Shown here one piece after another: positions 1 to 64,000 of a DNA stretch of 64,000 bases (positions are counted from its first letter, which is position 1; each line of letters begins with the position of its first letter). This DNA comes from Yoonia sp. (GTDB taxonomy: Bacteria > Pseudomonadota > Alphaproteobacteria > Rhodobacterales > Rhodobacteraceae). The notes beneath the pieces are model-generated. The model had not been told where the DNA came from. It saw nothing but the letters and a program-made list of their open reading frames with translations, and did not search any database. A program made the translations under genes and the position numbers. The DNA is taken from assembly GCA_029250945.1 (NCBI GenBank), contig JAQXEG010000011.1, forward strand, positions 38,727 through 102,726, in the 5' to 3' direction.

Positions 1-180
1 AATACAATCACCGCGTGTTGCCGCGCAAATGGCCTGCCAGAGCCGGACGGCTTAACCGCGTAAATCATTGGTTTTAAATTATATTCAGTGGGAAAAAATT
101 CTATTTTTGCCCCTATCGCCAAGACCTGAAAAAGCTACCAATATCAAAGTGGTATTTATTTCGGGTTTTGGTGATTTTCT

Positions 181-960
181 GTGGTTGCGTTTTTTCAGCA
201 GTATTTTGCAACAATTTTTGAGCGCCGTACGGCGTTGATCACCGGCTTGGTGATTTTGGGGTTTGTCGTGCTTGGCCTCTTTGGCACGTTCGGCAAGCTC
301 AGCGTGATTGAACGGGTTTGGTTCTGGACCCCGCTTTGTTTGATTGCCGTCGCGACTAGTGCGCTTGTGCATCAGATCACAACACAGTTCTTTGCGGCAG
401 TCGGGCCTCGGGTTAAGTTGTGCTTATTCGGGCTTGGTTTTGTGTTGCTGTATTCGCCGATCATTTTCCTTATCAGTGAAAACCAAATCCTGACAGACGA
501 GATGCCGACAATGCCGTTTTGGCAGATCATCCTGACTATCGCGGGCTTTGCGTTTACGTTTGGTTCGTTGCTGCCTTTGTTGACGCCGCCAGCGGTGACG
601 CAGTCAGCCGAAAACTTGCCAAGGATTTATGCGCGCTTGCAAGATATTGGTGGTGCGCGCGTGGCGCGATTGTCGGTCAGCGATCACTATACCAATGTGT
701 ACCTGTCGGACGGGCGCACGCAGCGGTTGTTGATGCGGTTTGTGGACGCTGTGCGCGAGATGGACGATACCCCAGGATTTTGCACGTATAGGTCGCATTA
801 GGTTGCCGCAGCCGAAATCGTCGAAGGGCACAAAGTCGGGCAAAAGGAATGGCTATCGCTTAGCTGTGGCGCCCTTATTCCTGTTAGTAAAACCTACCGC
901 CAGAGCGCCGTTGACGCGGGCTATCTTGGACAGGAACAGGGATCGCGCGCGGTCCGGTAA
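181..960 (+). pseudogene. LytTR-domain membrane protein interrupted by an in-frame TAG at 799-801
   Basis: ORF 181..801 has a hydrophobic N-terminal half and then ...SVSDHYTNVYLSDGRTQRLL...FCTYRSH*. The same frame continues after the TAG as VAAAEIVEGHKVGQKEWLSLSCGALIPVSKTYRQSAV... to TAA at 958-960. The stop sits where this family carries the Trp of HRSHW (TGG->TAG). Confidence 0.75.
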
Positions 961-1615
961 GCACCGCAATGGGGCGCGCGCCAAACAGTGTGCGCACGGC
1001 CGGATCGGTCGCAGAAAGCCCGCCGGTATAGGTGCCAAACGCGGGCATGATCAGCCGTGTGTCATCATAGACAAAGCAGGCGCGCGCGGCCCCGCCACCG
1101 GGAATGCCGTATTTCGGGTGGTAATGTCCCGAAACCTCTTGCGGGTCTGCGGTGGCGATATGCCGGAACATCAGGTTATCGGTTCTGTATTCCCACAGAT
1201 GGCTGCCGCTGATCGCCACGGGGCCTGCGTCGTGGTTACCCTCGATCCAAATCCATTCGCGACCTGCTTGCATTTGGGCAAGTTGGCGGGTGGCGGGTTC
1301 GCTTAGCTCTTCGGCGGCGCGCAGGTCGTCAAAACTGTCACCAAGGCAGATGACACGTGCTGGGTACGTCGCCGCAATCTCTTGGGCCAATCGTGCCAAT
1401 GTGTCTGTGGTTTCATAGGGTGGTAAAAAGTAACCTGATCGCCGTGCAATCCGCCCCGATTTGCCAAGGTGTAGGTCGGACACGCACAAGGTCCGCGATG
1501 GTGCGATCCACAAACAGCCGCTGGGGCGGGCGACGACATCAGAGCCGCAAAAGGTGAACGCATGTCCGGTCATAGTGTTGTCGTGGCGGGAAATTGGGCG
1601 CGGATCAAGGGCCAA
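884..1615 (-). CDS. pdeM: ligase-associated DNA damage response endonuclease PdeM (metallophosphoesterase)
   Basis: 243 aa. Motifs CVSDLHLGK, ICLGDSFDD, EGNHD and SGHYHP. Its start overlaps the 3' end of the Lhr-type helicase gene. Confidence 0.85.
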   Translation of the reverse strand: MALDPRPISRHDNTMTGHAFTFCGSDVVARPSGCLWIAPSRTLCVSDLHLGKSGRIARRSGYFLPPYETTDTLARLAQEIAATYPARVICLGDSFDDLRAAEELSEPATRQLAQMQAGREWIWIEGNHDAGPVAISGSHLWEYRTDNLMFRHIATADPQEVSGHYHPKYGIPGGGAARACFVYDDTRLIMPAFGTYTGGLSATDPAVRTLFGARPIAVLTGPRAIPVPVQDSPRQRRSGGRFY

Positions 1616-63443: not shown

Positions 63444-63465
63444 GATGGGTTAAACCCATCCTACG
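63444..63465 (-). repeat. REP-type element copy g (minus orientation)
   Basis: The minus strand reads CGTAGGATGGGTTTAACCCATC. Located just upstream of the YigZ-like gene. Confidence 0.8.
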
Positions 63466-63828
63466 TTGATGCGCATTATTGATGACGTCCTGACCGATCG
63501 CGGATCGAAATACGCGGTATCAGGCGGACCAGCCGCGTCATCCGCTGACGCCAAGGCGTTTATCAAAACGCTGTGCCGGACCAAGAAATTCGCCAAGGCC
63601 ACCCATAACACATGGGCGCTGATCCTGCCCGATGGCACGCCCATCAAGAACGATGACGGCGAAAGCGGCGCGGGTATGGTGATCTTGCGGATGCTGGAAC
63701 GCGAAGGCCGCGTGGGCGAGATCGTGGTGGTCACCCGCTGGTTTGGTGGCAAGCACCTTGGCGGGGATCGTTTCCGGCGGGTGCAAGACTGTGTCCGCGT
63801 GTGGTTTGATCAGGTCGCAGCGCGCTGA
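63466..63828 (+). CDS. YigZ/IMPACT family protein (N-terminal domain only)
   Basis: 120 aa. Motifs DRGSKY and VVTRWFGGKHLG. Confidence 0.8.
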   Translation: MMRIIDDVLTDRGSKYAVSGGPAASSADAKAFIKTLCRTKKFAKATHNTWALILPDGTPIKNDDGESGAGMVILRMLEREGRVGEIVVVTRWFGGKHLGGDRFRRVQDCVRVWFDQVAAR

Positions 63829-64000
63829 CGTCGCAGGTGCCAGCGGTAGATTAATGGGGCCAGCACGCGGTCATAGGCCAACGATGCAATCCAATGAATG
63901 CCCGGCAAATTGACTACCCGCGCCAGCCAACGGTAGCGTGGCATCTGGTTCCACAAAATGATGAAAGCCGGAATGCCAGATGTCAGCTCACCATCATGGG
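63810..64000 (-). CDS. DCC1-like thiol-disulfide oxidoreductase (DUF393), 3' end only
   Basis: My own translation of the minus strand gives ...IPAFIILWNQMPRYRWLARVVNLPGIHWIASLAYDRVLAPLIYRWHLRRQRAAT*. The gene continues beyond the window edge. Confidence 0.55.
   Translation of the reverse strand, partial: HDGELTSGIPAFIILWNQMPRYRWLARVVNLPGIHWIASLAYDRVLAPLIYRWHLRRQRAAT

Follow-up and report, generated by a model that had tools for sequence, protein, structure and literature searches.

The window analyzed here is a 64-kb stretch of contig JAQXEG010000011.1 from a marine Yoonia of the Roseobacter group, with a GC content of 57%, and it holds the remains of a Tad/Flp pilus locus together with several broken genes elsewhere. 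Twelve dead genes were counted next to 58 intact open reading frames (ORFs), corresponding to 17% of the approximately 70 genes; intact coding sequence makes up 78.7% of the window and pseudogene remnants 12.3%. In each of the 12 dead genes, comparison with an intact orthologue or allele reveals an inactivating lesion. A first-pass annotation based on the window alone had listed 11 inactivated loci, or about one gene in six, and this count was borne out with slightly shifted coordinates. The same holds for its statements that several loci carry multiple lesions (the ATPase, tadC, cpaB, and SLT genes each have at least two), that the long core genes are unbroken (carB, topA, lhr, aspS, groEL, thrC, and the cox cluster run through without a break and have their full domain architectures), and that insertion sequence (IS) elements are missing, since no transposase or integrase family was found in any of the gene calls covering the window. 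However, six of the 12 dead genes belong to the tad locus and represent one event, so that the number of independent losses is about seven rather than 11.

To follow these lesions in the population, conspecific contigs were retrieved from public metagenome assemblies. The exact TPR protein encoded at 6791-7648 was found in at least 121 blocks of these assemblies, with similar results for other window proteins; look-ups with the M48 peptidase returned no contigs and those with the NAD-binding protein only two short ones. The conspecific contigs are 98.4 to 99.9% identical to the window, were treated as about 20 strains, and come from the marine sample sets Tara Oceans, SIER19, CAST23, and KOPF15. 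Lesions were defined against intact orthologues, by tblastn of the proteins of the related loci L008, L010, and L011 on the window, or against intact conspecific alleles. For polymorphism counts, all conspecific contigs were projected onto the window and pseudogenes were read in their ancestral frame, yielding numbers of nonsynonymous (N) and synonymous (S) changes and their normalized ratio, pN/pS. In the genes that served as look-up queries (the 285-aa TPR gene, groEL, FMN reductase, and ribH) nonsynonymous polymorphism is forced to zero. Apparent deletions at scaffold gaps of 100 N were discarded, and gap-free junctions alone were kept.

An intact, syntenic Tad/Flp locus was found in about 80 related species, at full length wherever the contig permits. 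A scan for CpaC with one genome per species gave 80 Rhodobacteraceae loci, the nearest of which belong to Yoonia and Loktanella metagenome-assembled genomes (MAGs; 86 to 89% amino acid identity), followed by Cognatiyoonia and Octadecabacter. The ancestral order is SLT, three flp genes (as read in L008), cpaB, cpaC, an ompA-family gene, cpaE, cpaF, tadB, tadC, two TPR lipoprotein genes, cpaA, and a gene for a 447-aa P-loop ATPase. In L008, L007, and L054, genes of 213, 416, 480, and 321 aa (OmpA, AAA_31, T2SSE, and TadB_TadC_N plus T2SSF) lie between cpaC and tadC, and neither the window nor any conspecific contig has these four genes. In their place is the scar of an approximately 4.7-kb deletion at 9101..9104, which removed the ompA-like gene, cpaE, cpaF, and tadB together with 41 codons of tadC. 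Also missing from the window and all conspecifics are the three flp pilin genes, located upstream of cpaB in L008. A functional Tad/Flp system requires intact flp, CpaF/TadA ATPase, TadB/TadC platform, and CpaA, a set that the window no longer holds, whereas a secretin and TadD-like putative pilotins are present and intact in all strains. The locus therefore matches the conserved alphaproteobacterial Tad/Flp locus of the Rhodobacteraceae gene for gene in order and content, but differs in that seven genes have been deleted (three flp, ompA-like, cpaE, cpaF, and tadB) and five, or six with the flanking SLT gene, are pseudogenes. Since only the secretin and two TPR lipoproteins are left intact, it cannot build a pilus.

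The tad pseudogenes differ in the kind and age of their damage. At the end of the locus, the P-loop ATPase pseudogene (4869..6178, minus strand) has a frameshift near 5582-5594 that is common to all strains and puts the match to L008 residues 6-210 in frame -1 and that to residues 206-446 in frame -3. A CAG>TAG change at 6122-6124 is polymorphic among strains, and strain D has an additional 1-bp deletion at 4922. This pseudogene has a pN/pS of 0.50 and 4.2% segregating sites. Its C-terminal fragment (4686-4869, minus strand) reads about 60 codons beyond the stop of the orthologue into the adjoining NAD-binding dehydrogenase gene, which suggests that the original stop codon has been lost as well. 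In the cpaA prepilin peptidase pseudogene (6297..6787, minus strand), a 1-bp deletion at 6391 that shortens a G5 run to G4 splits the match to the 166-aa L008 orthologue over two frames. The G5 allele is in frame in strains A, B, and F and in contigs L107 and L108, and the G4 allele was found in the window and strains C, D, and E.

The tadC remnant (8255..9104, minus strand) is truncated at its 5' end by the loss of the first 41 codons and carries 1-bp deletions at 8562 and 8846, so that L008 residues 42-118, 119-225, and 215-316 align in three frames. Neither of the deleted bases is part of a homopolymer (GA[C]GAC and GA[T]CAG). Its ORF states form a nested, stepwise series, from 283 aa (strains B to F) to 185 plus 98 aa (L108 and L111) and to 94 plus 84 plus 98 aa (the window, L107, L109, L110, and L112). 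The fragment is present in eight contigs; among the six that were aligned, four have both 1-bp deletions and two the first only, and strain A has a separate deletion at 8754. The intact cpaA G5 allele of L107 and L108 sits on contigs with these derived tadC deletions (8562/8846), which means that either strains have recombined or the G4/G5 run has slipped recurrently. The cpaB (RcpC) pseudogene (10736..11615, minus strand) combines a frameshift near 11340, a stop at 10828, and a degenerate N terminus; the match to the 285-aa L008 orthologue extends over two frames and contains an in-frame stop, and the stop at 10828 was found again in L112 only. The SLT lytic transglycosylase pseudogene (11603..12441, plus strand) has stops at 11741 and 12001 and a frameshift at 11878, with the 276-aa L008 orthologue in two frames and two in-frame stops. 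Its TAA at 12001 is common to all strains, and its TAG at 11741 reads CAG in strains D and E.

Outside the tad locus, six further loci are broken. A LytTR-like membrane regulator pseudogene (181..960, plus strand) carries a TGG>TAG change at 799-801: frame 1 reads CTYRSH*VAAAE where the L008 orthologue has HRSHWVA, so that the codon of the conserved HRSHW tryptophan is TAG. Strains C, D, E, S, and T share this stop with the window, and strains A, B, and F have TGG and an intact 259-aa ORF. The family label is weak, the intact allele scoring 20.8 bits against a cut-off of 22.6 and the broken allele having no Pfam LytTR match. The alternative oxidase (AOX) pseudogene (29904..30551, minus strand) is split into pieces of 87 and 118 aa, both matching PF01786, by a 1-bp insertion in an A run at 30085 that the window shares with strains A, C, and D; strain B has an intact 216-aa ORF (189 bits). 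A single-domain receiver remnant (39939..40337, plus strand) has an in-frame TAG at 40035, its translation being AKVFVVEDDFLIQ...AGA*VVAAG. This stop is present in all five covering strains, and strain F has an extra 1-bp deletion at 40133; here too the label is weak, with Response_reg profile positions 1-81 of 111 matched at 22.9 bits against a cut-off of 30.2. A CII/YmfL-like regulator pseudogene (48038..48494, plus strand), with a weak label of 29.8 bits for the YmfL family against a cut-off of 90, is split into 37 plus 101 aa by a 4-bp GTTA tandem duplication at 48147 that the window shares with strains C, E, and H; strains A and F have an intact ORF of 150 aa.

A fused DUF1800/DUF1501 remnant (56110..57101, plus strand) arose by a large internal deletion and covers Pfam positions 56-152 of 419 and 259-359 of 390, approximately a quarter of each profile. 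Finally, the HlyIII/TrhA pseudogene (62686..63288, minus strand) combines a motif deletion, about 30 out-of-frame codons, and a TGG>TAG change at 62900. The loss of the IYLKIAGTY motif and the frame damage are seen in the whole population when compared with the intact 212-aa homologue P0001: P0001 reads ...HAAIYLKIAGTYTPLVVMIG... where the 200-aa ORF of the population reads ...HAACDDDRRLVCLF..., returning to frame at FWQ. The uncorrected ORF covers Pfam positions 134-224, and coverage grows to 11-224 once the frame is corrected in a reconstruction. The TAG at 62900 was found again in L104, L105, and L106.

All tested lesions recur in independent metagenome assemblies, the SLT stop at 11741 lying outside the tested set. 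Lesions seen in every strain examined are the frameshift in the ATPase gene, the deletions of 4.7 kb and of the pilin genes, the TAG of the receiver, the TAA at 12001 in SLT, the fusion of the DUF genes, and the damaged frame of HlyIII. Other lesions are polymorphic and phylogenetically structured: both the LytTR stop and the cpaA deletion are present in the window and strains C, D, and E and absent from A, B, and F. Several that seemed private to the window were then found elsewhere, namely the tadC fragment in eight contigs, the nonsense fragment of HlyIII in three, and the cpaB stop in L112. These data bear on the possibility that the lesions are sequencing, assembly, or MAG-consensus artefacts. 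Such errors deserve consideration, as the window is probably a metagenome-assembled contig, two of the lesions lie in short homopolymers (cpaA G4/G5 and AOX A4/A5), conspecific scaffolds contain 100-N gaps, and contig L087 looks chimeric. However, every tested lesion recurs across different samples and assemblers, the tadC deletions lie outside homopolymers, and many lesions are substitutions to stop codons; in addition, polymorphism in the pseudogene regions follows a neutral pattern, and frameshifting indels avoid intact genes about 30-fold (see below). An artefactual origin is thus extremely improbable, and the statement of the first-pass annotation that random sequencing error does not account for the pattern holds, given recurrence in independent assemblies of 98.4 to 99.9% identity and the fact that several lesions segregate with intact alleles. 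The lesions are biological: real, inherited, polymorphic, and evolving near neutrality.

Two observations concern the assemblies themselves. An absence of AOX from L087 was dismissed: its segment 11642-21641 is 99% identical until the end of groEL and then about 70% identical, with a different gene order, and L087 is probably a chimera of metagenome sequences that meet at the conserved groEL. Gaps of 100 N were located at 6796-6895 in L001, 6795-6894 in L003, and 6879-6978 in L006, and in L092 to L094, L097, L098, and L100 near window positions 56400-57215. They cluster in the two most decayed regions, cpaB-SLT and the DUF1800/1501 remnant plus response regulator, where coexisting deletion variants may break assembly.

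Real lesions might still leave functional genes, if the split genes encoded separate polypeptides or acted as phase-variable switches at short repeats. The polymorphism of cpaA (G4/G5), AOX (A4/A5), and the CII-like gene (one or two copies of GTTA) at short repeats is in line with such switching, and the occurrence of the cpaA allele on both tadC backgrounds could reflect recurrent slippage. Yet tracts of four to five bases are too short to work efficiently, cpaA is left without a pilin substrate as the flp genes have been deleted, and polymorphism in cpaA, AOX, and the CII-like gene is even over codon positions, with pN/pS values of 0.6 to 1.0 or more. Moreover, most lesions are nonsense substitutions or non-repeat deletions, and remnants are deleted outright. 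Retained function of this kind is accordingly very unlikely.

The comparison of selection on broken and intact genes proposed with the first-pass annotation was run as pN/pS, and the pseudogenes turned out to be near neutral and the intact genes not. The pseudogene segments (7.9 kb) have 3.09% segregating sites, distributed 83/72/88 over codon positions 1/2/3, which does not differ from uniform (p = 0.46), and a pN/pS of 0.66. For intact non-tad genes (47.8 kb) the values are 1.20%, 123/83/367, and 0.20, and intergenic sequence (5.8 kb) has 2.3% segregating sites. Pseudogenes and intact genes differ both in N/S counts (Fisher p = 2e-14) and in codon position (chi-square p = 1e-12), the pN/pS of intact genes being 0.16 to 0.20 with a strong third-position bias. 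The proposal that selection is relaxed on accessory genes for surface, sensing, and alternative respiration functions is thereby supported. Frameshifting indel polymorphisms among strains were also counted, with about 10 in 7.9 kb of pseudogene and about 7 in 5.8 kb of intergenic sequence but 2 in 50.4 kb of intact genes. The latter two are 1-bp frameshifts read in loci L001/L088 and L089, in tldD of strain A (18930; 353 plus 120 aa) and in sat/cysC of strain B (36750; 470 plus 239 aa), and they could be either assembly errors or true losses in these strains.

Substitutions private to the window comprise 91 GC>AT against 19 AT>GC changes, with C>T (53) exceeding G>A (29), and this excess fits the many TGG>TAG and CAG>TAG stops. 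Remnants are also being removed by larger deletions with gap-free junctions. A 68-bp deletion in the LytTR-like locus of strains D and E (179-246) lies between 11-bp TTGGTGATTTT direct repeats; strain B has lost 11413-11818 at a GGGGC microhomology, and L111 and strain C have lost 10762-12011 with an 8-bp overlap. In strain E, a 498-bp deletion (56680-57177) with no clean repeat reaches into the neighboring regulator. These deletions are explicable without an IS element. Three ORFs that are intact in the window evolve as if unconstrained, namely dprA, a 238-aa response regulator, and a 119-aa hypothetical protein. The 377-aa dprA ORF (16740..17873, minus strand; TIGR00732 model, 215 bits) has N = 27, S = 9, a pN/pS of 1.10, and 3.1% segregating sites, with changes spread along the gene and across strains, and it may be a gene at the earliest stage of loss. 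The response regulator (57098..57814, minus strand) is decaying in the population, with a pN/pS of 0.71, codon position counts of 10/7/7, and 3.3% segregating sites, and is truncated to 151 aa in strain E.

The three retained genes of the tad locus behave differently. The cpaC secretin (9101..10528, minus strand; 475 aa) has a complete Secretin domain architecture, is 86 to 89% identical to its relatives, and is free of stops and frameshifts in the 11 conspecific strains that cover it fully (N = 11, S = 13, pN/pS 0.29). The full-length 285-aa TPR lipoprotein (6791..7648, minus strand) is TadD-like and is named Flp pilus assembly protein TadD in the sources; it has synonymous polymorphism only, but as a query gene its N count is biased to zero, for which reason it was excluded from the test of the secretin. 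The second TPR lipoprotein (7677..8234, minus strand; 185 aa) is unbroken in all 10 covering strains (N = 9, S = 11, pN/pS 0.27). Taken together, cpaC and the 185-aa TPR gene have N = 20, S = 24, and a pN/pS of 0.29, as opposed to N = 101, S = 52, and 0.61 for the adjacent tad pseudogenes (Fisher p = 0.022; third-position enrichment, p = 0.008; diversity, p = 0.002). The neighboring pseudogenes have at least 12 events in 4.2 kb; at this rate, the roughly 2 kb of cpaC and TPR sequence should hold about 6 lesions, and none was seen. These genes may either still be functional or have a partner system elsewhere in the genome. That they form an orphan secretin-pilotin module kept by purifying selection for a new role, for example as a Tad-independent outer membrane conduit or a partner of an unlinked system, is conceivable but rather unlikely.

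Altogether, these data are very probably explained by ordinary gene loss under relaxed selection in a free-living marine Rhodobacteraceae bacterium. A function would become dispensable, purifying selection on it would cease, and small lesions would build up; those observed are GC>AT nonsense changes (TGG>TAG and CAG>TAG), 1-bp indels, and one 4-bp duplication. Deletions between short direct repeats would then erase the remnants. The largest event is the collapse of the Tad/Flp system, in which deletions took the three pilin genes and ompA-cpaE-cpaF-tadB and would have rendered cpaA, cpaB, tadC, the linked ATPase, and SLT useless, leaving them to a stepwise, strain-specific decay; we infer this order of events within the locus. 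Separate from it are losses of single genes, namely those of two or three small regulators, of the alternative oxidase, of TrhA/HlyIII, and of the DUF1800/DUF1501 pair.

As to causes, the first-pass annotation had offered a niche or lifestyle shift, host restriction, and a strong bottleneck. The first fits, and the other two find no support, because the population lives in seawater, its intact genes are well constrained (pN/pS 0.16 to 0.20), and IS elements are lacking. Genome-wide reductive evolution of the kind seen in young symbionts or pathogens, driven by restriction to a host or by a severe bottleneck, could be read from the 17% of dead genes, from the fact that intact coding sequence is only 79% of the window, from the seemingly unconstrained evolution of dprA, the 238-aa response regulator, and the 119-aa hypothetical protein, and from the frameshifts in the housekeeping-type tldD and sat/cysC in single strains (A and B, respectively). 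Nevertheless, this scenario is improbable: the population was found in the seawater metagenomes of several sample sets, there are no IS elements or transposases in the window, the intact genes have a low pN/pS and a strong third-position bias, half of the dead genes lie in one locus, and published pseudogene fractions of Roseobacter genomes already span 3 to 15%. Early reductive evolution is known from the host-restricted Mycobacterium leprae, Shigella, and Sodalis. The window resembles these bacteria in its high local density of pseudogenes and in the loss of sensing, surface, and alternative respiration functions, but differs from them in the absence of IS expansion, in its habitat, which is marine water (as in the Tara Oceans metagenomes) and not a host, and in efficient purifying selection on the remaining genes.

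Several points nevertheless weigh against simple relaxed-selection gene loss. The cpaC gene and the two TPR lipoprotein genes, intact in all strains, appear constrained, which is a misfit with the relaxation of selection on a whole pathway. The pseudogene pN/pS of 0.66 is below 1, although it derives from crude counting and some lesions are recent or polymorphic. Large deletions initially read in strains A, C, and F (cpaB-SLT) and A, C, H, and I (DUF/regulator) proved to be 100-N scaffold gaps. The flanks of about 11 kb in conspecific contigs look less decayed, no more than one or two of their approximately 13 genes being variable, and the span examined is the 64 kb plus these flanks; the 17% of the window is high but inflated by the tad locus. 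Finally, the trigger, a shift from a surface-attached to a planktonic lifestyle, is inferred from the sequence data. A planktonic move would fit the kinds of genes that were lost (those for an attachment pilus, for small regulators, for the alternative oxidase, and for TrhA), and gene loss under relaxed selection in a free-living bacterium is the reading retained here.

Some further features of the window were recorded. GC skew is positive across all 64 kb, which places the window on one replichore, and no tRNA genes are encoded in it. The sole Rfam match is an FMN riboswitch (RF00050, 112 bits) at 61956-62109 on the plus strand, directly 5' of the lumazine synthase gene ribH (62189-62626). 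In a thioredoxin-reductase-like gene, in-frame 3-bp and 9-bp indels at 38237-38251 vary between strains, where a GAC/GTC repeat encodes an aspartate-rich C-terminal tail.

The formation and removal of bacterial pseudogenes under relaxed selection and deletional bias is described by the general model of Ochman, Moran, and colleagues. The window agrees with this model in its near-neutral polymorphism, in the presence of several lesions per gene, in deletions between short direct repeats, in remnants that differ between strains, and in the definition of lesions against intact orthologues. There is no essential difference, except that an unusually clear population-level series is available here for an uncultured marine bacterium. 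The phenomenon itself is well known, and the population evidence for it is unusually direct here. For a marine bacterium that is free-living and widely distributed, gene loss can be followed in a clean natural example, in which a surface-attachment organelle is caught mid-decay, the mutational steps are kept in coexisting strains, and relaxed selection can be measured from metagenome contigs. It also flags pseudogenes that are called as normal ORFs, such as the 200-aa HlyIII and the 283-aa tadC.

Streamlining of the SAR11 type, with high coding density, few pseudogenes, and low GC, does not describe a window with 78.7% intact coding sequence, 17% dead genes, and 57% GC. A closer parallel is found in the pelagic Roseobacter CHUG and RCA/COR clusters, in which genomes have been reduced without classical streamlining (10.1101/2021.01.15.426902, PMC9426536, PMC12661815). 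Published pseudogene fractions of Roseobacter genomes are 3 to 5% by one method and 3.5 to 15% by Pseudofinder. The likeness to these clusters consists in a free-living marine lifestyle within the Roseobacter group, a moderate to high GC content, appreciable numbers of pseudogenes, and an intact coding density of about 80%. Membership in one of the tabulated pelagic clusters was considered, and the organism matches none of them in GC content, none having about 57% (CHUG has 55.4%). The present organism differs in that it is nearest to Yoonia, Loktanella, and Cognatiyoonia, and in the 17% of its window against their genome averages of 3 to 15%, a comparison of a single 64-kb sample including one dead locus with whole genomes. 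The decay described here bears on the debate whether genomes of the pelagic Roseobacter group have shrunk through adaptive streamlining or through a neutral loss of genes that followed a niche change.

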